Below are positions 2-61,473 of a stretch of 64,000 bases of DNA, piece by piece. Source of the DNA: a virus. Taxonomy: Duplodnaviria > Caudoviricetes. Every line of letters starts with the position of its first letter. Positions within the stretch are counted from its first letter, which is position 1. The position numbers and the translations under genes are program-made. The stretch lies in IMG/VR virus record IMGVR_UViG_3300035703_000088, positions 1,460 to 65,459 of that record, one strand, 5' to 3'. Under the pieces are notes generated by a model that was not told the DNA's origin, searched no databases, and was given only the letters and a program-made list of their open reading frames with translations.

Positions 2-1546
2 GCCAAGTCCCGTGTCGTCACGGGCATCGCTGAGTTCTCGGGGCGCATCGCTCCCGAGAGTGCGATTCACCACCGGCTCTCCATTGAGCCGATGCCCCAC
101 CAGTTGGTCATCGGTGAGGCGGTGCGTGCGGGACACACCCGCCTGCTCATCGCTGATGACATGGGCGTTGGCAAGACCTACAGCGCCCTGCTGGCGCTGG
201 ACGAGACCGAGGCGTACCCCGCCCTCATCGTGTGCCCACCGGCTCTCGTCATCAACTGGGAGCGCTCGTGCAAGTCGGCGCTCCCCAATCGCACGGTCGC
301 TCGCATCGGTGGCAAGACCCCGACGCAGGTGCCCGATGCCGACATCGTGATCGTCCCCGACTCGGTCGTGGGCGACTGGGCGCTCGCCCCCAAGGAGGTG
401 CTGGCGAAGTGGGAGAAGACCAACCGCCTGCTCCCCCGTGGGGAACAGCGACCGATGCCCACGAACATCCTCGCCCAGCACCCGTGGCGTGGTCTCGTGC
501 AGGACGAGGCGCACCGGAGCAAGACCCCCGATGCTCTCCGCACCAAGGGTGTCACCGCCATCGCCAAGGCCATGGACTCCGATGCGGTCATCCTGTGCCT
601 CACCGGCACACCGCTGACCAATCGCCCCGTGGAGTTGGTGCCCATCCTCAACATCCTCGGTCACCTGCCCCGCTTCGGTGGCAGTGCGAAGTTCAAGCAC
701 CGCTACTGCGACCCTCGCCCCGGGTTCCGTGGTCGCATGGACTTCACGGGTGCCAGCAACCTGCGGGAGTTGAACGACCTGCTCCGTCGCTGGGTGATGA
801 TTCGGCGCAAGCGCTCCGAGGTCATCACACTGCCCGACTTCAGCCGGTGGCTCACGCCTGTCACCATCACGGGCAAGCACCTCACCGACTACAAGCGTGC
901 GGTGCGTGACCTTGAGGAGTTCCTGCAAGACAAGCGTGGCGATGACGAGTACAACCTCAACGCCAACGCTGAGGCGCTCGTCCTGCTCGGTCAACTACGG
1001 CAGATCGCTGGGCTGTCCAAGGTAGAGACCGCCGTGTCCAACGCCAGCGAACTGCTGGACAACGGCGAGCAGGTGTTCCTCGTGACCGCCCACAAGGAGG
1101 TCGCTTGGCGCATCCGTGAGACGCTCATCAGCGACGGTGTCAAGCCCTCCGAGATCGTCTCGGTCACGGGTGACGACACCCAGCGTCAGAAGCAGGAAGC
1201 GGTGGACGCTTTCCAGTCCGGTCGGGCACGAGTCCTCATCGGCAACATCGTCGCCGTGTCCGAGGGTCTCACGCTCACCTCGTGCGCCAACATGATCACG
1301 GTGGAACTGCCGTGGACACCCAGCGCACTGAAGCAGGCCGAGGCTCGCATTGACCGCTTCACGCAGACCCGCAAGACGAGCAACAACATCCTCCTCGGTG
1401 CCATGGACGGCGACCTGTCCGTGGACGAGCGCCTGTGGGGGATGCTGGAGCGCAAGGAAGCCATCATCGGCACCGCCGTGGACGGTGGCTCCGAGGCGCT
1501 CGTCGGTGGGTCGGTCGTCAACGAGTTGCTGGACTCGTACCGCTGA
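2..1546 (+). CDS. SNF2/SWI2-family helicase (HARP/SMARCAL1-like), 5' end outside the window
   Basis: Motifs LIADDMGVGKT (I), DEAH (II), LTGTPLTNRP (III), QAEARIDR (VI). The frame is open from base 2, upstream of the ATG at 92. Confidence 0.9.
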   Translation, partial: AKSRVVTGIAEFSGRIAPESAIHHRLSIEPMPHQLVIGEAVRAGHTRLLIADDMGVGKTYSALLALDETEAYPALIVCPPALVINWERSCKSALPNRTVARIGGKTPTQVPDADIVIVPDSVVGDWALAPKEVLAKWEKTNRLLPRGEQRPMPTNILAQHPWRGLVQDEAHRSKTPDALRTKGVTAIAKAMDSDAVILCLTGTPLTNRPVELVPILNILGHLPRFGGSAKFKHRYCDPRPGFRGRMDFTGASNLRELNDLLRRWVMIRRKRSEVITLPDFSRWLTPVTITGKHLTDYKRAVRDLEEFLQDKRGDDEYNLNANAEALVLLGQLRQIAGLSKVETAVSNASELLDNGEQVFLVTAHKEVAWRIRETLISDGVKPSEIVSVTGDDTQRQKQEAVDAFQSGRARVLIGNIVAVSEGLTLTSCANMITVELPWTPSALKQAEARIDRFTQTRKTSNNILLGAMDGDLSVDERLWGMLERKEAIIGTAVDGGSEALVGGSVVNELLDSYR

Positions 1547-1554
1547 CCACCATC

Positions 1555-1581
1555 GGGGGTGTCCCGTAACGGGACACCCCC
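1555..1581. promoter_or_regulatory. Conserved palindrome copy 1 (GGGGG-TGTCCCGT A ACGGGACA-CCCCC)
   Basis: Perfect 13+1+13 inverted repeat, intergenic, 8 nt after the helicase stop; same 17-bp core as five other sites. Confidence 0.85.
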
Positions 1582-1627
1582 CTCTGACCAACCACCACCA
1601 ACCATCAAACCAATCAGGAGAACCACC

Positions 1628-2524
1628 ATGTACAGCGACAACGCCACCGACAAGCAGATCAACTTCGCCCTCTCTCTGTGGAAGACCCTCAACGAGGTCG
1701 TCATTGACACCGAGGACCCCGCCGTCAACTGGCAGGGCAACGCCGAGCAGACAGCCAAGGCTGACGCTCTGCTGTCCCGCACGCTGTCCGAGTTGGACAA
1801 GCCGGTCGTCAAGCGTCTCGGTGAGACCGAGTTCATCCTCAACACCGTGCAGGTGATTGAGGCGCTGGAGACTCACCTCACCGAGTTCACCAAGCCCGAG
1901 ATCAGTTCGGTCATTGACCGCCTCAAGAACCTCGTGGACTCAGCCCGTGCTGAAGTGGCACGCATCGGTATCACGATCAAGCCCGAGTGGGCTGACAAGT
2001 ACCCCGCCGTCCCCGCCGATGCGGAGCGGGTCATCAACTCCCGCTTCGCCAGCAAGTGCTCGGTGTGTGGCAAGCGTGACCAGTACATCGCCTACAACCG
2101 GCGTGGCTCGTGGTACCCGCTGTGCGAGATGTGCGCCCACCGCAACGGCGACGACAACGGCGACGACAAGTTGGACGAACTCATCCAGCAGGTGGCAGTG
2201 GCGCTGTCCAAGGGCAACAACGAGATGCTCAGCGTCGGTCTCGCCGTTGCCAACGCCGACGAACTGGACGGGTTCTCGTACTACCGAGTGTCCCGCTCCG
2301 GTGTCGCCAAGGTGAAGGGCGGTCAGCACTTCAACGCCACCGAGAACGTCTCGCCCAGCAAGGCTGTCGCACTGCTGGAGACCATCGTCACGGGTGACGT
2401 TGTCGCCATGGCGCAGGCGTTCGGACAGCACTTCACGATCTGTGGAGTGTGCAGTCGTGCCCTCAAGGATGCGGAGTCCAAGGCCCGAGGCATCGGTCCC
2501 GACTGCGCCAGCAATCTCTCCTGA
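1628..2524 (+). CDS. DUF6011-like Zn-finger domain protein
   Basis: C-terminal FGQHFTICGVCSRALKDAESKARGIGPDCA motif; internal CxxC...CxxC; start chosen from RBS AGGAG at 1616. Confidence 0.7.
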   Translation: MYSDNATDKQINFALSLWKTLNEVVIDTEDPAVNWQGNAEQTAKADALLSRTLSELDKPVVKRLGETEFILNTVQVIEALETHLTEFTKPEISSVIDRLKNLVDSARAEVARIGITIKPEWADKYPAVPADAERVINSRFASKCSVCGKRDQYIAYNRRGSWYPLCEMCAHRNGDDNGDDKLDELIQQVAVALSKGNNEMLSVGLAVANADELDGFSYYRVSRSGVAKVKGGQHFNATENVSPSKAVALLETIVTGDVVAMAQAFGQHFTICGVCSRALKDAESKARGIGPDCASNLS

Positions 2525-2642: not shown

Positions 2643-3047
2643 ATGGGATACCTATCCGCACTCGGCATTGCCGACTCTAACCTCTCGCTGGAACAGCAAG
2701 TGCGCTGGCACCTGACCAGCAACTGCTACCCGCCCGTGCCGTTGATCATGGTGCCGGTCGCAGTGAATGCGATTGAGGCTGTCATCTCGGACGAGCCCAA
2801 TGCGGAGATTTCCCTCCCCGAGGGCGTGTCCTTTCGTGGGAACTCCGACTTCGCTCCTGCGTACGCCATCGTGGAAACGCTTCGGCTGGAAGCGTTCACC
2901 ATCACGGCGTTCAACCCGTGGGAACCGGACGAGGATGGAAACATCCTGTGCTTGGACTGCATGAACTCGTACGAGCCTGACGACATCGTTACCGACCCGC
3001 AGTGGAATGACCCCCGTTGCGAGGAATGTCACTACAAGAACAAGTGA
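2643..3047 (+). CDS. Hypothetical phage protein with C-terminal CxxC/CxxC
   Basis: RBS AGGAG at 2631; WHLTSNCYPPVP motif; CLDC...CEEC. Confidence 0.7.
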   Translation: MGYLSALGIADSNLSLEQQVRWHLTSNCYPPVPLIMVPVAVNAIEAVISDEPNAEISLPEGVSFRGNSDFAPAYAIVETLRLEAFTITAFNPWEPDEDGNILCLDCMNSYEPDDIVTDPQWNDPRCEECHYKNK

Positions 3048-4363: not shown

Positions 4364-4392
4364 TGGGGGTGTCCCGTAACGGGACACCCCCA
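4364..4392. promoter_or_regulatory. Conserved palindrome copy 3
   Basis: TGGGGG-TGTCCCGT A ACGGGACA-CCCCCA, perfect 14+1+14, intergenic. Confidence 0.85.
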
Positions 4393-4417
4393 TCAACCAA
4401 CACAGGAGACCACCACC

Positions 4418-4651
4418 ATGATCAAGACATTCACCGTTTCGCTCAAGATTGCAGTGCAAGAGTTCCCCGAGGAAGTCATCAGCGAAGAAGACCAAATCTA
4501 CGCACTGCGTGACCTTCTCGTTGAAGGCTTGTACCAAGTCGGTGCCGGTCGTGAGGGAGACACCCTCAACGAGCACGGTGCCGGTGTGCACTGGTTCTAC
4601 ACCACCCTCAACATCACCCCAACCAACTACACCAACTCAACCGAGGAGTAA
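4418..4651 (+). CDS. Hypothetical protein
   Basis: RBS AGGAG at 4404; 77-aa ORF. Confidence 0.65.
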   Translation: MIKTFTVSLKIAVQEFPEEVISEEDQIYALRDLLVEGLYQVGAGREGDTLNEHGAGVHWFYTTLNITPTNYTNSTEE

Positions 4652-7326: not shown

Positions 7327-7355
7327 TTGCGTCTCCTAAATGGGGGCGCTACTAT
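7327..7355 (+). promoter_or_regulatory. Sigma70-type promoter for the AAA+ operon
   Basis: TTGCGT-17 nt-TACTAT in an intergenic gap. Confidence 0.6.
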
Positions 7356-7357
7356 CT

Positions 7358-7416
7358 CCTCCCCGCCTTCAGTACCCCTGATGGCGGGGAGGCTCGCACT
7401 GTCCCGTTACGGGACA
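7358..7416. promoter_or_regulatory. Hairpin (7358-7392) followed by conserved palindrome copy 4 (7400-7416)
   Basis: CCTCCCCGCC...GGCGGGGAGG, then TGTCCCGT T ACGGGACA, then an (AACCACC)3 leader. Confidence 0.8.
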
Positions 7417-7472
7417 CCAACCAATCAAACCACCAACCACCAACCACCAACCACACAAGAAAGAGAACCACC

Positions 7473-8747
7473 ATGGCAAAGATCAGTGACCTCCGTATCG
7501 GAGGCGAGTACGAAGTGACCGCCAAGAAGGCCAAGGCCGTCAATGCACGCTTGCTGGACGGCACGCCCGTGAGCATCCCCGTTGGAGAGCGGGTGGTCGT
7601 GAAGACCACCACCGTTGAGGCTGACGGCACGCAGTTCGCTCGGTGCATCAAGGCTGAGCGCATCTCGGGCGAGTTCGTGTACCTCCTGCCCAAGTTGTTG
7701 TCGGACGGCACCATCGTGACCCCGAGCGTCGTGGTCCCCGCCACTATCACGCAAAGCGCCCCGATTGCTCCGGTTGAAGTGAAGCCCATCGTGGATGCGA
7801 TGGATGTCCGGTTGGACCCCTACCGCCCCAACCCCGAGTTGGTGAAGCAGTATGTGTCCCGCAAGTTGTTCGGCTCCATCAAGGACACCGACCTCCTGCT
7901 CCACTACTGGCGTGACCGTAACTCTGATGGTTACTCCAGCAACGTCCTGCTGGTCGGTGACACGCAGGCTGGCAAGACTCTGCTCGTGCAGGTCCTCGCC
8001 ATCCTCGTCGCCAAGGAACTCGGGTACCCGAAGCCCTTGCCGGTGTTCACCCTCAGCGGTTCGGCTGGCGTGTCCGACCTTGACCTCTTCGGTCAGTCGG
8101 TGGCGCACATCGGACCCGATGGCGTGGAGCGCCTCGTGTTCCTCAACGGCATCGTGGAACTCGCCAGCAAGGTGGCGTGCATCCTGTACTTGGATGAGAT
8201 CAACATGATGCCCGAGCGGGTTACTTCAACCCTCCACCCCGTGGCTGACGACCGACGCTCGTTCGTCAACCGTCAGCGTGCGGTGGATGCCGAGGGCGAG
8301 TACCTCATGGCGCAGACCAAGATGCACAAGGACTGCTGGGTGATTGGCACGATGAACCCCCCGGGTTACCGTGGCACCTCGCCCCTGAACGAGGCGTTTG
8401 CGAACCGCTTCACGAAGCGTATCCCGTGGGGTTACGACCGTGATGTGGAGACCAAGTTGCTGGGTTCACCGGCCCTCGTCCTGCTGGGCGAGTCGCTTCG
8501 TGAGGCTCGCCGTCTTGGCTCGCTCACCACGCCGGTCGGCACGAAGTTGCTGATGGACCTGAAGCGTGACGTTGACACCCTCGGTGTGGACGTTGCCCTC
8601 GGTGTCTTCAGCGGGTTCTTTGACGACCGTGAGCGCACCAAGGTGGAAGCCATCCTCATGGACAAGTCCATCAAGACGTTCCTCGCTGAAGAGCGAGAGG
8701 GCACGGCTCCTCAGCCTGAACAGCAGGAGTCCCCAGTTCCTCAGTGA
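7473..8747 (+). CDS. MoxR/CobS-type AAA+ ATPase
   Basis: Walker A GDTQAGKT, Walker B LYLDEIN, GTMNP, EAFANRF; adjacent to the VWA partner. Confidence 0.88.
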   Translation: MAKISDLRIGGEYEVTAKKAKAVNARLLDGTPVSIPVGERVVVKTTTVEADGTQFARCIKAERISGEFVYLLPKLLSDGTIVTPSVVVPATITQSAPIAPVEVKPIVDAMDVRLDPYRPNPELVKQYVSRKLFGSIKDTDLLLHYWRDRNSDGYSSNVLLVGDTQAGKTLLVQVLAILVAKELGYPKPLPVFTLSGSAGVSDLDLFGQSVAHIGPDGVERLVFLNGIVELASKVACILYLDEINMMPERVTSTLHPVADDRRSFVNRQRAVDAEGEYLMAQTKMHKDCWVIGTMNPPGYRGTSPLNEAFANRFTKRIPWGYDRDVETKLLGSPALVLLGESLREARRLGSLTTPVGTKLLMDLKRDVDTLGVDVALGVFSGFFDDRERTKVEAILMDKSIKTFLAEEREGTAPQPEQQESPVPQ

Positions 8748-10189: not shown

Positions 10190-10220
10190 GAGGGAGTGTC
10201 CCGTAACGGGACACTCCCTC
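10190..10220. promoter_or_regulatory. Conserved palindrome copy 5
   Basis: GAGGGAG-TGTCCCGT A ACGGGACA-CTCCCTC, perfect 15+1+15. Confidence 0.85.
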
Positions 10221-15072: not shown

Positions 15073-15126
15073 ATAGTGGTGTCCCGTTACGGGACACCAC
15101 TATAGTACGGAGTCAGGGCAGGTCAA
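15073..15126 (-). promoter_or_regulatory. Conserved palindrome copy 6 (15073-15103) overlapping the -10 and start site of a - strand promoter
   Basis: ATAGTGG-TGTCCCGT T ACGGGACA-CCACTAT (15+1+15); on the - strand TTGACC-16 nt-TATAGT (15126 to 15099). Confidence 0.75.
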
Positions 15127-33383: not shown

Positions 33384-34605
33384 CAGCAGTCACCTCCGAA
33401 AAGTCCATGTTCTCCCAGTCCCATTTGATGTGCACTTCTCCGGTTGGTGCGGTACGGGCCGCAACAACACGGATGATGGCTTGGTCATCCAAGTCAGGGT
33501 TGCGCTCAACACCGAGCACGAGGTCGGCGTCTTGAACGAACGATGACGAGTAGCCGATGGCATCGGCGGTGATGGCACGAGTTTTCTTGTTGTTCAACTT
33601 CCACGAGAGGGCTTGTGTCGTGGAGACGATGGGGATGTCCAACTTCTGCGCCATGCGCTTGAGCCCACGGGTGATGTTGGTCAGCGCTTGTGGAGAACCC
33701 TTGGGCTCTCCCTCCTCGTCGTCCATGAGGTACACGCCGTCAACCACGAGAAGATCGGGTTGGTACTCCTTGGCTTTGCCCATGAGCGCTGAGATCGTCG
33801 TGAGCGATGAGGTGTCTTCGCTGAAGATGAACGGTTGCATATTCTTGCGTACTCGCAAGGCTTTGGAGATGCGCTCCATCTCTGTCTTCGTAAGATCGCC
33901 ACGGAGAATCTTGTTGTACGGCGTCTTGGAGATGATTGCGTCGTAGCGAGCCTCTTGCTCTTCAATGCTCATCTCAAACGAAACGAACATCGGGGTCTTG
34001 CCGTGAACGTGGCAGGAGTTGGCGATGATGAGTGCGAACAACGATTTACCACGCTTGGGCTCACCAACGAACACGATGTACTGCTGTGGGCGCAGGCCCG
34101 AGGTGATGCGGTCAAGCCCGTAGAAGCCGGTGGGAATACCACGGAGTGCATTCGGTGTGTTACGCATCTCTTCGTAACGAGCAACACGAGACTCCCAGTT
34201 TTGGATGATGTCAACGTCCCGCATACGGGACACTTCAACGGAGGCGGTCTGCACTCCGGAGGACAGGTGCTCAAGTGCGTCCTTTGTCTTGCCCTCGTTG
34301 ATGAGCGGCATGACTTCAGAGATGACCTCAACGAGGCGGTGCTGGGTGTGCGCTTGAAAGATTTCGTCAATCAAGCGAGAGAACGGTTCGGCCTCAGCGT
34401 CGTACAACTGAATGTCGGCGTACTGCGTCTTGAACACTCGTGGCGTGGGCACCGTGCCGTGAGTGCGGTAGAACTCGGTGAGCCACATCCACACTTCCGA
34501 CCATGCGCCAGTCAGGTGTTCAAACTTGAGACCCGCCTTGATGGGCGTGGAGATGTCCGAAGTCTGGATGACTTTAGAAATCAGCAAATGTTCCGGCGAC
34601 GCCAT
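33352..34605 (-). CDS. dnaB: DnaB-like replicative helicase
   Basis: GIPTGF, GEPKRGKS, SFEMS, VVDGVYLM, QDAD. Confidence 0.92.
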   Translation of the reverse strand: MASPEHLLISKVIQTSDISTPIKAGLKFEHLTGAWSEVWMWLTEFYRTHGTVPTPRVFKTQYADIQLYDAEAEPFSRLIDEIFQAHTQHRLVEVISEVMPLINEGKTKDALEHLSSGVQTASVEVSRMRDVDIIQNWESRVARYEEMRNTPNALRGIPTGFYGLDRITSGLRPQQYIVFVGEPKRGKSLFALIIANSCHVHGKTPMFVSFEMSIEEQEARYDAIISKTPYNKILRGDLTKTEMERISKALRVRKNMQPFIFSEDTSSLTTISALMGKAKEYQPDLLVVDGVYLMDDEEGEPKGSPQALTNITRGLKRMAQKLDIPIVSTTQALSWKLNNKKTRAITADAIGYSSSFVQDADLVLGVERNPDLDDQAIIRVVAARTAPTGEVHIKWDWENMDFSEVTADGYGVGDAFD

Positions 34606-35662: not shown

Positions 35663-36876
35663 TGGGTTCTCCTGATTTGCTGGTAGTGCGCTACGGCTTG
35701 GCGAAGCGAAGCGGTGGGTTTGCGGAGAGTACCATGCCCCATGAGGTCCGTGGGGACATTCACGCCATGGGCGTTCAGTTGCTCCACCGCTGAGGCGTCT
35801 CCGGGTTCGCTCAACAGCGTGCTCGCACAGAGCAAAAGCGTGGCCAGAACGTCAGTACCGTCCGGATGCGCCGAGGCGTCGTACTCGGGAATGATCACGA
35901 TGTCTGCAAGGAGTTCGGGGTAGGTGTACGCCAAGTCCATCGCTCGGCGCCAAACCAGTTTCCGGATGCGGGAGTTGATCTCCTCGTCCCACGGCAGGAC
36001 GTCGGTGTACTCAAACTCGTCGGCAACCCACCCGAGGATCGGGCTGACGGCAATGATCTCCGTGGTTTCGGCTAGCAGGGATGCCTGAACGCTGGTGGCG
36101 CAGAAGGACTTCCACGGGGTACTGGACTCCACGTTCCGAGAGAAGGTGAAGAACTTGTCAATCATGCGCTGGAGATCGGCGGGGGTCACTCCGTTTTTCA
36201 GGAGGCGCTTGAGTTGAATCCTGAAGGCGGGGCGGTCCTTTACAGCCACGGGGGTACCCCCAACCTGACGCGCCACGAAGTTGAAGTGCTGGAGCACATC
36301 GGTCGTGTCGTGGGCCAACTTCTCCAACGCAGGGGTCTCATCCCATTCTCTAGTGTCATCGGGGTCAGCGCCGAAAATAGGCATAGATTGTTCTCCTTCG
36401 TAAAATGGGCGAAGCCCACAAAGGGAAATGTCTTTAGACATTTCCCTTTGTACTATGTCTCTAATACTATCTCTACTATGGAATTCGCCCTGCTCAGGGG
36501 CTCGGGGTGGGGTCATGGGTGACCCCCCTGATGGGTCATGGGTGACCCCCCCTTGGGGTAGGGTGGGGTCACTGGTGACCCCCCTCTTGGGTGGCTTGAA
36601 GCGCACAACGATGTGCTTCCCACGGTTTCCCGACAGGCGCTCAGACGAGATAATCCCGGCTGATTCCAGCCACCGAAGAGAACGCTTGACCGTCTCGGGG
36701 GACATCCCCGACGACTTGGCGATACCGGCAACCGTCAAAGGCTTGGCACCAGACAATGGCGTCAAGCGGATGACGGTCATCAAGATGTGCGTGTGCGTTG
36801 GCGTTCCACGCTTGCTGATGAGGTCAAATGCCCATATTGGCATTGGGGCAAACGGCCCCTGAATCTTGTTGGTCAA
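35659..36876 (-). CDS. Replication initiator (N-terminal wHTH, lambda O-like position)
   Basis: TVAGIAKSSGMSPETVKRSLRWLESAGII; directly upstream of loader/helicase/primase; contains iterons; TTG start after GAGGAG. Confidence 0.75.
   Translation of the reverse strand: MTNKIQGPFAPMPIWAFDLISKRGTPTHTHILMTVIRLTPLSGAKPLTVAGIAKSSGMSPETVKRSLRWLESAGIISSERLSGNRGKHIVVRFKPPKRGVTSDPTLPQGGVTHDPSGGSPMTPPRAPEQGEFHSRDSIRDIVQREMSKDISLCGLRPFYEGEQSMPIFGADPDDTREWDETPALEKLAHDTTDVLQHFNFVARQVGGTPVAVKDRPAFRIQLKRLLKNGVTPADLQRMIDKFFTFSRNVESSTPWKSFCATSVQASLLAETTEIIAVSPILGWVADEFEYTDVLPWDEEINSRIRKLVWRRAMDLAYTYPELLADIVIIPEYDASAHPDGTDVLATLLLCASTLLSEPGDASAVEQLNAHGVNVPTDLMGHGTLRKPTASLRQAVAHYQQIRRTQ
36418..36584. repeat. Putative replication origin: 3 iterons + AT-rich tract + 16-bp perfect inverted repeat
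   Basis: GGGTCA(TG/CT)GGTGACCCCCC at 36510, 36533, 36566; ACAAAGGGAAATGTCT-TT-AGACATTTCCCTTTGT at 36418-36451. Confidence 0.75.
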
Positions 36877-36928
36877 CGGTGGCTCCTCGGTGTGGCCGAG
36901 ACTATACACACAAACCGGTCGCCAAGTG

Positions 36929-36957
36929 TTGCATACACCGATTGTTGGGGCTAATCT
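36929..36957 (+). promoter_or_regulatory. Sigma70-type promoter for the sRNA/dps island
   Basis: TTGCAT-17 nt-TAATCT; a divergent TATAGT -10 for the initiator lies on the - strand at 36901-36906. Confidence 0.65.
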
Positions 36958-36963
36958 TCGCTC

Positions 36964-37065
36964 ACCGAGTTGGTGGTTCTCCTCGGTAACCGGTTTGTCC
37001 GGTGGTGGTTAAACAGGCTGGGGCGCTTTGGTGTAGAGTTACTGAGGCGCCCCAGCCCTGTTTTT
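36964..37065 (+). ncRNA. Candidate ~102-nt trans-acting antisense sRNA (or structured dps leader)
   Basis: Starts 7 nt after the -10; hairpin ACCGAG/CTCGGT with loop TTGGTGGTTCTC; second hairpin; terminal 11-bp stem + TTTTT; no ORF; complementary to early-gene RBS leaders. Confidence 0.6.
37011..37065 (+). terminator. Intrinsic terminator/attenuator just upstream of the dps RBS
   Basis: GGCTGGGGCGC...GCGCCCCAGCC followed by CTGTTTTT. Confidence 0.7.
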
Positions 37066-37076
37066 AAGGAGACCAC

Positions 37077-37520
37077 ATGGCATCCAACACCGGACTCACA
37101 AAGTCGCTCAAGGCCCTTCTCTCAGACGTTGTGACCTTCTACTTCATGGCCCACGGATTCCATTGGAACGTGGAGGGTCCGGACTTCAGCCAATACCATG
37201 GGCTTTTCTCCGACATTTATGAGGACGCCTACAGTTCTATTGACCCCATCGCAGAGAACCTGCGGAAGTTGGACGAGTACGCCCCGTTCAACCTCCAGAA
37301 GTTTATTGACATGCGGACCATCACTTTTAAAGATGTGTCCCCCACTCCGAAAGCGATGGCCGGGGCTTTGTTGACGGCAAATGAGGCCCTCATCAAGCAG
37401 TTGTATGTTACATTTAAAGATGCTGAGAAAGAAAATCAGCAAGGTATTCTTAATTTCATTTCCGAGCGGATTGACATGCACATGAAGTGGTCGTGGCAAC
37501 TCCGAGCATCAACTAAGTGA
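37077..37520 (+). CDS. dps: Dps (ferritin-like DNA protection protein)
   Basis: HGFHWNVEGPDFSQYHGLF...DPIAENLR. Confidence 0.92.
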   Translation: MASNTGLTKSLKALLSDVVTFYFMAHGFHWNVEGPDFSQYHGLFSDIYEDAYSSIDPIAENLRKLDEYAPFNLQKFIDMRTITFKDVSPTPKAMAGALLTANEALIKQLYVTFKDAEKENQQGILNFISERIDMHMKWSWQLRASTK

Positions 37521-37530
37521 GGTAACCATC

Positions 37531-37824
37531 ATGGCTGAGAGTAAGAAAGACCCCCGTCTGGCCCGTGCAGGTGTCTCTGGGTACAACAAGCCCAAGGCAA
37601 CGCCGGATCATCCGACTAAGTCGCACATCGTCGTCGCCAAAGTGGGCGATCAAGTTAAGACCATCCGCTTTGGTGAGCAGGGCGCTGAGACGGCGGGTAA
37701 GCCCAAGGCGGGTGAGTCCGAGCGCATGAAGGACAAGCGTGCATCGTTTAAGTCTCGCCATGCTAAGAACATCGCTAAGGGCAAGATGTCGGCCGCTTAC
37801 TGGGCCGACAAGGTGAAGTGGTAA
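37531..37824 (+). CDS. Small basic conserved phage protein
   Basis: GVSGYNKPK...IRFGEQG...SFKSRH...SAAYWADKVKW; RBS GAGGT. Confidence 0.75.
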   Translation: MAESKKDPRLARAGVSGYNKPKATPDHPTKSHIVVAKVGDQVKTIRFGEQGAETAGKPKAGESERMKDKRASFKSRHAKNIAKGKMSAAYWADKVKW

Positions 37825-38087
37825 TGGCTCCCCGAAAGACCAGCACCCCTAAGAAGACCACGCAGTACTACCGGGATAATCCGGAGGCTCGTGATAAGAA
37901 GGACGCCTACAACAAGGATTACAACGCTAAGCCTGAGGAGAAGGAGAAGCGTCGTGAACTTGCTGAAGAGCGCCGTAAGCGTGGGGTTATGGGAAAAGGT
38001 GGTAAGGATATGTCCCATACCAAGGATGGTCGCATCGTGGCGGAAGAACCATCTAAGAATCGTGCACGGAATAGAGGAAAAAAGTAA
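37824..38087 (+). CDS. Small basic protein with degenerate HNH-like C-terminus
   Basis: GKDMSH...SKNRARN; TAATG coupling. Confidence 0.6.
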   Translation: MAPRKTSTPKKTTQYYRDNPEARDKKDAYNKDYNAKPEEKEKRRELAEERRKRGVMGKGGKDMSHTKDGRIVAEEPSKNRARNRGKK

Positions 38088-59811: not shown

Positions 59812-61473
59812 TTATTCTTCGTTTGGCACACGGCGCTGGGCGAACCTTGCTCCGTATGCTCTTTGAATTATGTTGTTAATCATCTGTCCTTCGGCTTCAC
59901 CGATGCCGGGTAGTGGCCCAGCACCTGCTTCACCTCCAGCAGATACTACACTACTTTCTCCCTCTTGTCCGGGGATAATACCGGTAGTTAGCATTACGGC
60001 TTGCTGAATCTGTGCGCGTAGCATATCCAGCGCACCTTGGTCAATAGCATCATCACGAAGTTCCTCAAAGATTTCAAGCATTTTCTCGTTCGGGAACTCT
60101 TCGCCAAGAATCTTGAGAGCACCGCGCTTGGATTCCAAGCCGAGACCCAGTTTGGCCTGAACTTCGTTAAGTTTGATAAGAACATCCACCGGGAGAGGCT
60201 CCGGCCAATGGATTTGCGTCTGGTAGACCACGGGATCGGCGGGGTCAAGAACCAACGCTTGATCGGGCTCGGGAGGTGCCGCCACCCCGGGATTAAACTG
60301 GAGCATTTGGGGCTCAAATACCGCGCATGTACGGATGATGATCTCATTAACCTTCTCCAGACCCTTAGTGAAATGAATCTTCTTCTGGTTATACCGATTC
60401 ATCATGGGCTGGTACTGAATAGCCAAAGCGACACCCGAGGTGTTGGACACCGGCTGGAACTGCCCCAAGGCGGTCTCCGGAACACCTGTGATCTCATGCA
60501 TTGCACGCTTAATGAACTGGATGTATTCAAGGGCTCCAGCCATCTCACCGCGGGATTCCAAGTTGTACACCGAGGCGTCCTTCGGAAGACCCGCCCACAC
60601 CTTCTTGGGTCCGCGCTCCAACTGGCTGGCCTTGGCGCCGGTAATGATCGTCACCGGGGCGGCGTGGTAGTTGATGATGTCCGAAACCTCGGTCATCTTC
60701 TCGTTGAGTTCACGGTTGAGGGAGATGATGTCCCAAATGTCTGACTGGCCCCACGGCGACGAGGAGATCGTCATGTTAGGGATATGCACAATCGGAATAA
60801 GACCAATGGCGTTGGGGTACTGGTCAATCAGTTCATCGTTGATGTACTGCTCCACCGACTCGTCGGTAAGGATTTCCGTGAAGGTGTAGACCTGCCGAGT
60901 ACCCTCGGGGCTGGTTCCCCAAAAGCGATACTTCAGTTTGAATCGCAGGATGCGGTCACGGTCGTGGGGGTGGTACTCAGGGAAACAGTGTGCGGGGTTA
61001 AGCGGGATGATACGAACGCGCCCCGGATGGCCGATACCAGCCGGATCAACGTAGGGCTCTTCGTAGGCGACCTTGACGAAGCAGTCACCGGCAACGCCAG
61101 CCAACTGGCCCATTTCCCACAGCACATAGTGCTTAGAGTTATGGTTCTCCCAAACCTCATGGAGCATGTGGGGGATGATCGCGGCGTTCTGTTCCGGAAC
61201 CTTGAACTGAATACCCTTACCAAAACAGAAGTTGGTGATGTAGTCCGACATGGTTCGGACATAGTTCATGGTGATGTTCTGTTCGCCCATCTCACGGCGG
61301 TACGACCAGTGGTGGCCAAGGTACCAAGCCCAGCACGAGGCATAACGGTTCAAGCGAGGGCCATGAACCTCAAACTCCTCATCGGCTAGTTCAACCAAGC
61401 CAAGAGGGGAGATAGCGACCGTTAGGTCACTGGACGAGGCTCTATAAGATGGCGACCAAAAATCAACAGGCAT
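59812..61473 (-). CDS. Portal protein (SPP1 gp6-like)
   Basis: NYVRTM...GDCFVKV...IPIVHIPN...WGQSD...SGVAL. Confidence 0.9.
   Translation of the reverse strand: MPVDFWSPSYRASSSDLTVAISPLGLVELADEEFEVHGPRLNRYASCWAWYLGHHWSYRREMGEQNITMNYVRTMSDYITNFCFGKGIQFKVPEQNAAIIPHMLHEVWENHNSKHYVLWEMGQLAGVAGDCFVKVAYEEPYVDPAGIGHPGRVRIIPLNPAHCFPEYHPHDRDRILRFKLKYRFWGTSPEGTRQVYTFTEILTDESVEQYINDELIDQYPNAIGLIPIVHIPNMTISSSPWGQSDIWDIISLNRELNEKMTEVSDIINYHAAPVTIITGAKASQLERGPKKVWAGLPKDASVYNLESRGEMAGALEYIQFIKRAMHEITGVPETALGQFQPVSNTSGVALAIQYQPMMNRYNQKKIHFTKGLEKVNEIIIRTCAVFEPQMLQFNPGVAAPPEPDQALVLDPADPVVYQTQIHWPEPLPVDVLIKLNEVQAKLGLGLESKRGALKILGEEFPNEKMLEIFEELRDDAIDQGALDMLRAQIQQAVMLTTGIIPGQEGESSVVSAGGEAGAGPLPGIGEAEGQMINNIIQRAYGARFAQRRVPNEE

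Follow-up and report, generated by a model that had tools for sequence, protein, structure and literature searches.

Within a 200-bp gap that separates divergent initiator-like and dps genes of an uncultured tailed phage (Caudoviricetes; IMG/VR record IMGVR_UViG_3300035703_000088) sits an RNA element, at positions 36929 to 37065 of the stretch analyzed here, that raises a simple question: does it encode an RNA which silences distant early genes of the same phage, or a structured leader that serves the gene directly downstream? All positions refer to the window, the whole stretch of 64,000 nucleotides (nt) of DNA, which corresponds to bases 1460-65459 of the 65,459-bp virus record. An earlier note on this DNA had proposed that one trans-acting RNA, transcribed from the gap, shuts off a regulon of early genes by pairing with their translation-initiation leaders. 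To our knowledge, temporal control in lytic phages is explained almost wholly by proteins (sigma factors, antiterminators, and repressors of the RegA/RegB type); if the proposal is true, a phage RNA reading a private tag at early ribosome-binding sites (RBSs) would constitute an RNA-based mechanism for coordinated shut-off.

Judged by its pattern of conservation, the element is a real, selected, structured RNA of about 100 nt, encoded on the + strand, new, and absent from Rfam 15. The role that we favor, with a probability of roughly 0.4, is that of a c4-like, leader-encoded RNA directed against RBSs, with its strongest partners in the early arm of the genome and a weaker one directly downstream. 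Even if it acted in cis only, it would represent a new, well-conserved structured leader of the Dps/basic-protein island, the small gene island that it precedes, in abundant freshwater phages.

A conserved structured RNA in a divergent gap

The element begins with a promoter-like site on the + strand (36929-36957), read from the sequence as a -35 hexamer TTGCAT (36929-36934), a 17-nt spacer, and a -10 hexamer TAATCT (36952-36957); transcription is predicted to start at about A36964, the first base of hairpin 1. Hairpin 1 (36964-36987, +) has the stem ACCGAG/CUCGGU and a 12-nt loop, UUGGUGGUUCUC (36970-36981), and the loop plus the next CU provides the exact complement of AGGAGAACCACCA, a 13-mer to which we return below. 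Hairpin 2 (ACCGG-UUUGU-CCGGU; 36989-37003, +) runs into the segment GGUGGUGGUU (37001-37010, +), the last seven bases of which form a single-stranded linker; this linker is a second copy of GGUGGUU and complements AACCACC(ACC). Hairpin 3 (37011-37065, +) comprises 21 pairs with one bulge, a loop UGUAGAGUUA (37032-37041), and then five uridines (U5; 37061-37065), a terminator-like arrangement of which a terminator scan flags 37016-37057 and the tail CTGTTTTTAA. The unit of ~102 nt, free of open reading frames (ORFs) and ending in a hairpin and U5, that the earlier note had described is indeed present. Element length varies from 119 to 128 nt among relatives, by differences that are not multiples of three, and no frame is conserved; a small ORF on either strand was rejected because indels among the relatives break the frame.

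Relatives were identified through the neighboring protein as well as through the RNA. A search with the initiator protein returned 17 IMG/VR contigs, of which five, at 88-89% identity, make up clade A and the other 12, at 48-51%, clade B, and a metagenome scan anchored on hairpin 3 returned nine stretches, two of which (L068 and L069) are of a third type, clade C. The bearers of the element thus comprise three clades of uncultured, freshwater, myovirus-like phages, whose neighboring initiator proteins are ~49% identical. Within clade A the intergenic region averages 93% identity, and the closest large relative of the window phage, G005, is 74-88% identical to the window over long aligned blocks.

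Among the nine distinct sequences that represent the three clades, hairpin 1 contains 23 consecutive invariant positions, compared with 1 of 34 columns in the hairpin-2 region and 0 of the 4 bases that precede hairpin 1; 6 of 8 columns are invariant in the linker, which reads GGUGGAU in clade C. The exact 18-mer of hairpin 1 occurs in 17/17 IMG/VR contigs found independently via the initiator protein, all of which also match the hairpin-3 pattern, and the same hairpin 1 is present in 9/9 metagenome stretches retrieved by a hairpin-3 pattern that leaves hairpin 1 free. Loop-1 variants were absent from both of these searches, and none appeared in a scan for the promoter palindrome and the stem with the loop given as N12 (16 stretches). 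Conservation in relatives, by which the earlier note had proposed to judge the element, is accordingly borne out, with hairpin 1 invariant in all three clades.

The remaining hairpins behave differently. In hairpin 1, five of the six stem pairs never vary, whereas three of the five pairs of hairpin 2 have changed on both sides with the hairpin kept (its loop varies too, and its stems in relatives read ACCGG/CCGGU, CGCUGA/UCAGCG, CGCCGGU/ACCGGCG, and CGUCGGUA/UAUCGGCG), and four pairs of hairpin 3 have done so, with 97.6% of cells paired. Over the whole alignment 92.9% of cells are paired, versus 35-49% with slid partners, and the seven pairs with both-sided changes account for 22 cells versus 0-5 when slid, support that comes from hairpins 2 and 3. 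The slid-partner control serves as a guard: MAFFT alone misaligned the clades, so the sequences were aligned to a covariance model for which the three clade-A sequences and a hand-written structure were the input, and such an alignment leans to the structure supplied. This model finds one strong copy per genome (59-150 bits) and scores 144-150 bits on the forward strand versus 22-26 on the reverse, where the matches are partial; several pairs are G-U on the + strand, and these pairs, together with the one-sided scores, favor that strand. Invariant bases, compensatory changes, and a promoter kept in register argue for purifying selection on the RNA.

The promoter itself had been claimed with the right sequence and coordinates, and, as a predicted promoter, it is conserved in register: spacing and position are kept in all nine distinct sequences (TTGCAT, TTGCGT, or TTGCAC, then 17 nt, then TAATCT, TAGTCT, or TATGAT), with clades B and C having the better -10 (TATGAT). 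Both window hexamers match the Escherichia coli consensus at just 3/6 positions, and a promoter scan based on that consensus, which is E. coli's own, reported no site. The pattern TTGCRT, 16-18 nt, TANNNT is found in the window at chance level (2 versus 1.6 expected), its single other match (7327-7355, TTGCGT...TACTAT) lying a short distance before the palindrome and leader that belong to the gene at 7473. A 13-bp palindrome, GTGTTGCATACAC (36926-36938), overlaps the -35 hexamer and is kept in clades A, B, and C, with one base changed in L017. The palindrome does not recur elsewhere in the window, sites within three mismatches of it number 23 versus 31.9 expected, and it may be an operator for the back-to-back promoters.

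No match to the element was found in Rfam at 36929-37079 (cmscan of 36000-38000, E <= 10), the C4 family included; the search returned just two chance microRNA matches elsewhere, at 17.7 and 16.7 bits versus gathering thresholds of 90 and 82. Likewise, no Rfam family of known ligand- or protein-binding aptamers was matched, no tRNA or tmRNA was found in the window, and scans of 185,579 prokaryotic species genomes with the hairpin-1 22-mer and with the hairpin-3 pattern detected no copy.

The hairpin-1 18-mer is held by 22 stretches in all, five of which (L015, L020, L021, L024, and L032) were excluded from the family because of their unrelated contexts. Two of these, from unrelated IMG/VR contigs (L015, 2891-2949; L021, 3870-3955), carry the same 12-nt loop, TTGGTGGTTCTC, on a different 9-bp stem, CCCCGCGAG/CTCGCGGGG, and on the opposite strand the hairpin is followed by GTTTTTCGTC, resembling an intrinsic terminator; this loop match may be due to chance, as a few random 18-mer matches are expected in such a collection. 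A further set, L051-L061, was considered as distant relatives and dropped from the counts: initiator identity is 24-27% and confined to the C-terminal part, the layout is another one, and the element is missing (best covariance-model E, 0.54).

Complementarity of the hairpin-1 loop to early start sites

The reverse complement of 36971-37010 reads AACCACCACC-gga-CAAACC-ggttaccg-AGGAGAACCACCA, and the leader at 1590-1628 reads AACCACCACC-aaccat-CAAACC-aatc-AGGAGAACCACCA(TG). The three colinear blocks that the earlier note had seen here are present in the window, but the middle one, CAAACC, which lies in hairpin 2, is replaced in relatives, and the clade-B orthologue of the gene at 1628 retains the 13-mer alone. 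Without mismatch, AGGAGAACCACCA occurs solely at 1616 (+) and 36971 (-), and with one mismatch at 2631 (+) and 7461 (+); when two mismatches are allowed there are 11 matches versus 2.02 expected, a number reached by 0/100 shuffles. Similarly, AACCACCACC is exact solely at 1590 (+) and 37001 (-), the segment at 37001-37010 being the exact complement of 1590-1599, and at up to one mismatch it has 24 matches versus 6.5 expected (0/100 shuffles reach 24). The shared early-gene ribosome-binding tag can be written AGGAGAACCAYC(AUG); exact and one-mismatch tags are confined to the + strand of the left arm, plus the one reverse copy at 36971-36983.

Duplex energies were computed between a 15-nt loop segment and the 89 translation-initiation regions of the window, derived from 89 heuristic gene calls in which the starts at 7473 and 10242 were corrected by hand. 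The four best duplexes all involve genes of the early-left arm (1 to ~13.5 kb, rightward), namely those starting at 1628, 2643, 7473, and 4418 (-24.7 to -20.0 kcal/mol), and the preference for this arm has a Mann-Whitney p of 0.007. The best predicted trans target (1616-1630, +; -24.7) is the RBS and start of a 298-amino-acid gene (1628-2524) with a C-terminal DUF6011; here 13/13 nt of the site at 1616-1628 are complementary, 11 of them within the 12-nt loop. In the predicted target at the RBS of gene 2643-3047 (AGGAGAACCATCATG; 2631-2645, +; -22.2), the one mismatch is tolerated as G-U. The RBS of gene 4418-4651 (AGGAGACCACCACCATG; 4404-4420, +) is predicted to pair with the loop at -20.0 and with the linker at -19.9, and that of a 424-amino-acid ATPase-like gene (7473-8747; PHROG 249/ATPase match), at 7461-7475 (+; -20.2), is preceded by (AACCACC)3 at 7428-7450. 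The RBS of the initiator-like gene ranks 5th of the 89 (-18.1) and is a possible extra target; together with a probable TTG start at 36876, preceded by GAGGAG, it spans 36874-36893 on the - strand (CCGAGGAGCCACCGTTG).

The complementarity to the leaders at 1616, 2631, 4404, and 7461 on which the original proposal was built is therefore confirmed, and it exceeds chance both in shuffles and in duplex energies. None of 400 full loop shuffles reached the observed top-four sum; with the anti-Shine-Dalgarno (anti-SD) part held fixed, 4/400 did so (~70 distinct permutations exist), and of genomic 15-mers with CTCC at the same offset 5/500 did so, the best being reverse complements of real start regions. 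Judged by these controls, the loop behaves as an antisense copy of an early start site would, to a degree that its composition does not account for. Other CA-rich leaders, which the earlier note had set up as a comparison, are much weaker partners than the early targets (ssb-like, -8.4 and -9.8; capsid, -11.3).

Each of the genes at 1628, 2643, 7473, and 4418 is the first gene after a GTCCC-N5-GGGAC palindrome, copies of which lie at 1561-1575, 2571-2585, 4371-4385, 7401-7415, 10198-10212, and 15081-15095, and also at 34216-34231. The palindrome centers are clade-specific in every copy, with the stem constant: GTAAC or GTTAC in the window, ACGAT, ACGGT, ACCGT, or ATCGT in G005, and GTGTC, GACTC, GAGTC, or GACAC in the clade-B genome G009. 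Such a pattern would fit a recognition site that has changed in concert at all copies, in the manner of the ESAS repeats of mycobacteriophages or of a boxB-like hairpin.

The same layout, with a tag, one orientation, upstream palindromes, and a reverse copy, is seen in G009, where the top five of 103 start regions for the loop are early-left, where 29 early versus 70 middle or late genes differ with p 1.2e-6, and where the initiator RBS (-19.0) is 7th of 103. Orthologues of two targets are strong in 3/3 genomes: that of the 1628 gene (-24.7 in the window, -20.0 in G005, -24.7 in G009) and that of the 7473 gene (-20.2, -17.9, and -22.2, respectively). The window and 3/5 relatives' records (G008, G009, and G010) each contain an exact 11-mer target that is oriented oppositely to the copy at the RNA locus; the remaining two records searched, G006 and G007, are 67% and 77% complete.

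Action in trans, control in cis, and other explanations

The element has what would be looked for in a c4-like anti-RBS RNA, a loop complementary to RBSs. In the mechanism that we propose, transcription would proceed from a host-type promoter, back to back with the initiator promoter, to give an RNA that begins at the base of hairpin 1, folds into three hairpins within ~100 nt, and displays the antisense of the tag, the complement lying in the invariant hairpin-1 loop and part of it being repeated in the GGUGGUU linker. Pairing initiated by the loop would extend from the SD across the spacer to the start codon, of which it would cover the first base, and would affect the first gene after each early-region palindrome and possibly the initiator and helicase-loader genes; with 30S binding blocked, one RNA could damp a set of early genes. 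In clade A most transcripts would end at hairpin 3 and U5, and the product would be a free RNA of ~102 nt; the clade-B and clade-C counterparts would stay attached as 5' leaders or be cut off at the long hairpin 3. A weaker form of the tag is present in the RBS downstream of the element, and for this reason the Dps/basic-protein island is probably subject to inhibition by the RNA in cis as well. As far as the sequences allow a judgment, a role in trans is plausible, and the loop is co-conserved with its targets, but such a role has a serious rival in cis control. It is also plausible that the RNA gene originated when an early leader cassette was duplicated in inverted orientation.

A number of observations weigh against action in trans. 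The U-tract is present in 3/3 distinct clade-A sequences (U5 or U4C) and absent in 6/6 clade-B and clade-C sequences, which read CCAUACAAGGAG, so that in these clades the element appears to be the 5' leader of the next gene and not a terminator-bounded small RNA. A free small RNA hence does not appear to be a conserved feature, and the discrete unit proposed in the earlier note may stand for clade A, with its hairpin 3 and U-tract, but apparently not for clades B and C. The runs holding the stretch are DNA, labeled mainly as freshwater, lake, and subsurface metagenomes, and 0 of the 21 listed runs holding the locus are RNA. The start regions rest on heuristic calls, not on an established gene finder. 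As for the targets, that at 2643 is not conserved (its G005 orthologue reaches -12.0 and G009 lacks an orthologue), no orthologue of the 4418 gene was found in G005 or G009, and in G005 a single nucleotide of the best target has been deleted, the loop being unchanged. The notion of one trans-acting RNA governing an early regulon is supported insofar as the loop is antisense to the early RBS consensus, in the window and in G009, and is weakened by the lack of conservation of the targets at 2643 and 4418. Nor were the compensatory changes between RNA and leaders that the earlier note had hoped for observed; the loop and the tag are both invariant, and their pairing is thus without support from co-variation. 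A/C-rich spacers after AGGAG are, moreover, a general RBS habit of the window phage, such that an anti-RBS sequence selected for cis control would match early genes too. Finally, the RNAalifold consensus replaces hairpin 1 by a cis helix, GUGG..CUCCU/AGGAG.CCAC, and in partition-function folds of single sequences the loop pairs with its own SD with a probability of ~0.98 in clade C and 0.67 in L029.

These last results bear directly on the strongest alternative, a purely cis-acting leader, which we regard as a real possibility, close behind the favored reading. The element would then be the 5' untranslated region of the Dps/basic-protein island; the loop-1 region would pair with the island's own RBS, with hairpin 1 as the 'on' conformation, and clade A would add premature termination at hairpin 3 and U5. 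The island would remain silent until a signal opens the leader or permits RNA polymerase to read through, and the match to early RBSs would be a by-product of one shared RBS style. A conserved anti-SD sequence able to pair with the SD of the next gene is in fact present. In the window the potential cis partner is the RBS and start codon of the dps-like gene (AAGGAGACCACAUG; 37066-37079, +; gene start at 37077), whose product has a ferritin-like domain (E 3.9e-14). The element always ends 12-14 nt before an RBS, whether or not dps is there, and leaves no space for a further promoter between hairpin 3 and the RBS. In L017 (5210-5595) and in L068 (2165-2292 and downstream) dps is absent, and the element and RBS directly precede a gene for a small basic protein, homologous to that at 37824-38087 of the window (PHROG 6437); in most relatives the gene after the element is dps, and given these exceptions in L017 and L068/69 it is the first RBS of the island, and not dps, that the element accompanies.

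The cis helix (columns 14-24 and 132-141) has eight pairs kept in 9/9 sequences and one in 7/9, the sole RBS position at which clades A and B differ (A/U) is located across from the helix's unpaired UU, and clade C restores an 8-nt perfect match in a different register. In clades B and C, pairing probabilities for the own SD lie between 0.25 and 0.99; most clade-B hairpin-2 loops contain a further anti-SD-like sequence, UCUCCUUGC, and in L013 (5855-5980) an anti-SD of this type pairs with the own SD at a probability of 0.99. The caveat that the loop might act in cis on the dps RBS, already raised in the earlier note, is in clades B and C at least equally supported on thermodynamic grounds. In clade A, by contrast, these probabilities are low, the own SD being predicted to be mainly unpaired or paired elsewhere, and none of the cis pairs co-vary. 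The loop complements distant early RBSs better (11-13 contiguous nt) than its own RBS (6+4, 5+4, or 8 nt), the latter ranking 7th of 89 as a partner in the window (-15.8) and 22nd of 103 in G009. The own RBS differs between clades (AGGAGACCAC, AGGAGUCCAC, and AGGAGAACAC) while the loop is constant, and clade C, whose own RBS offers nothing for them to pair with, has kept both the linker and UUGGUGG, the 5' portion of the loop. A stable, conserved hairpin with the anti-SD in its loop would also be an unusual design for a stem that sequesters an SD.

An element that is bound by protein is less probable still, and on balance improbable. A protein of phage or host origin would recognize hairpin 1, the GGUGGUU repeats, and the hairpin-3 loop; it could be an RNA-binding regulator or antiterminator, or a binder of double-stranded GGTGGTT/AACCACC that also binds the early-leader repeats and the promoter region. 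That hairpin 1 is invariant, stem included, beside hairpins 2 and 3 that co-vary freely suggests sequence-specific recognition, and the hairpin-3 loop is invariant as well, yet its complement is not enriched in the genome (9 matches versus 11.2 expected). The two GGTGGTT copies lie, by a hand count, 32, 41, or 43 bp apart among relatives, roughly whole helical turns, the conserved palindrome GTGTTGCATACAC overlaps the -35, and the authors of the Cluster K study, in the sections consulted, preferred DNA-binding proteins for the analogous ESAS repeats (PMC3203893). A GGTGGTT site, however, leaves unexplained why the identity extends through the SD to a 13-mer and why, in leaders poor in G, the motifs are always found on the sense strand; structure at the level of RNA and not of DNA is indicated by the G-U pairs and by loops that vary in size, and no candidate protein was identified in the analysis.

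That the element is a functionless relic, an early leader cassette copied inverted into the divergent gap whose similarity to the leaders reflects homology, is very improbable: the element does follow the order seen in the reverse complement of leader 1, with GGTGGTTCTCCT, ~20 nt, GGTGGTGGTT, and lastly a hairpin rich in GC, and the covariance model gives weak matches (E 0.13-0.96) on the reverse strand of cassettes consisting of palindrome, CA-rich leader, and RBS (window 1532-1633 and 2510-2614; L062 5290-5393), but 23 invariant bases beside flanks at ~10-50% identity, with initiators ~49% identical across clades, compensatory changes that maintain hairpins 2 and 3, and a promoter conserved in register are compatible with an origin by inverted duplication and not with neutrality.

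Known phage systems and the genomic setting

The c4 RNA is encoded upstream of the RBS that it blocks, in the same operon, and is released by processing; our element, similarly, is immediately followed by a weaker copy of the sequence that it is predicted to target. In phages P1 and P7, loop-exposed sequences of c4 pair around the RBS and block translation (Citron and Schuster 1990, as outlined in the relevant part of PMC12197685). Like c4, the element is a small structured phage RNA with the complementary sequence in a loop, directed, by prediction, at an RBS. Unlike c4, it shows no sequence or structure match to Rfam C4, and whereas c4 acts on one antirepressor operon and in the immunity of a temperate phage, the targets predicted here are several dispersed early genes 24-35 kb away. 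The hosts of c4 phages are also of a different kind, Actinobacteria as host of the present phage being a presumption of the earlier note. No integrase or repressor was identified among 20 scanned proteins, which are a subset of the genome.

For the SAS/ESAS motifs of Cluster K mycobacteriophages, which have uses both in therapy and in the genetics of mycobacteria, the mechanism proposed here would, if true, supply a testable hypothesis. The function of these motifs was still called unknown in 2024-2025, in the portions consulted of two articles (PMC12699233, PMC11373665). As described in the passages available from PMC3203893, SAS is a private, asymmetric AGGAG motif of ~13 nt that lies 3-9 nt before the starts of a subset of non-structural genes, almost always in one orientation, and these traits are shared by our tag. 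In either system, about half of the tagged genes have an upstream inverted repeat with a consensus that differs by sub-lineage, namely ESAS in Cluster K and GTCCC-N5-GGGAC in our phages. Both systems, again as far as the passages go, have a single reverse copy away from gene starts. The consensus differs (GGGATAGGAGCCC for SAS, AGGAGAACCACCA for our tag) and the phages are unrelated, making the relation one of analogy only, and the parts of the Cluster K literature consulted propose no RNA.

The single reverse SAS of the Cluster K1 phage Anaya lies at 59870-59882 of its record (39871-39883 of L075), in a 385-nt non-coding gap between gp96 and gp97, and, read on the mRNA-sense strand, makes up a 10-nt loop, CCUCCUAUCC, that closes a GC stem of 6 bp within a longer hairpin. 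A 201-nt region around it folds with z = -4.7, and the reverse-SAS region is conserved in 133 Mycobacterium phage records. Of seven aligned Cluster K phages, four have an intact anti-SAS loop, two a degenerate one (Amgine and Amohnition), and one, SirPhilip, none; the Anaya loop is conserved in Deby, Niklas, and Amelie. Amgine still holds 12 exact SAS copies in the scanned 37-kb right part of its genome. As a general rule the parallel is thus weakened by Amgine, which has kept SAS with a degenerate loop, and by SirPhilip, which lacks the loop; by analogy it is suggestive, not general.

Leaders of the pR'-tR' type are read through by means of the Q antiterminator, and StxS is reported to act on host mRNA. 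The order of promoter, short structured RNA, terminator, and genes found here resembles that of lambda and Stx phages, as does the prospect of a terminated leader able to act in trans; here, unlike in pR'-tR' and StxS, only one clade has the U-tract, and it is early genes of the phage itself that are predicted as targets.

T4 relies on a protein repressor, RegA, and on RegB, an endoribonuclease with its cleavage site in GGAG, whereas specificity in the present system would reside in an RNA loop. Post-transcriptional silencing of many early genes via their translation-initiation regions would be common to both, to judge from the part of PMC3014915 consulted. By analogy, the silencing of a tagged regulon could be an RNA counterpart of RegA/RegB, an equation that we put forward tentatively and with more doubt than confidence. 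In the literature searched, we found no account of any phage RNA that targets an RBS sequence common to early genes, and a 2025 review of phage small RNAs does not mention early genes, actinobacteria, or mycobacteriophages in the sections consulted (PMC12197685). That the leader RNA is a master timer of a privately tagged early regulon, one that may explain the SAS motifs of Cluster K and belong to a widespread, undescribed layer of temporal control, is an attractive but doubtful extension.

With regard to the surroundings of the element, neither blastn with 36500-37600 nor tblastn with the initiator protein gave a match in 50,697 phage records, and the dps protein gave distant matches only, all below 60% identity, in 19 of these records. 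The initiator-like protein matches helix-turn-helix families (winged type), and its gene is followed by one for an IstB-like loader. These genes open the leftward block of replication genes (13.6-36.9 kb); on the other side of the gap lie the small rightward island headed by dps (37.08-38.65 kb) and the leftward structural genes (38.66-64 kb). A protein scan of the window identified a tail sheath, a major head protein, a portal, and a DNA polymerase.

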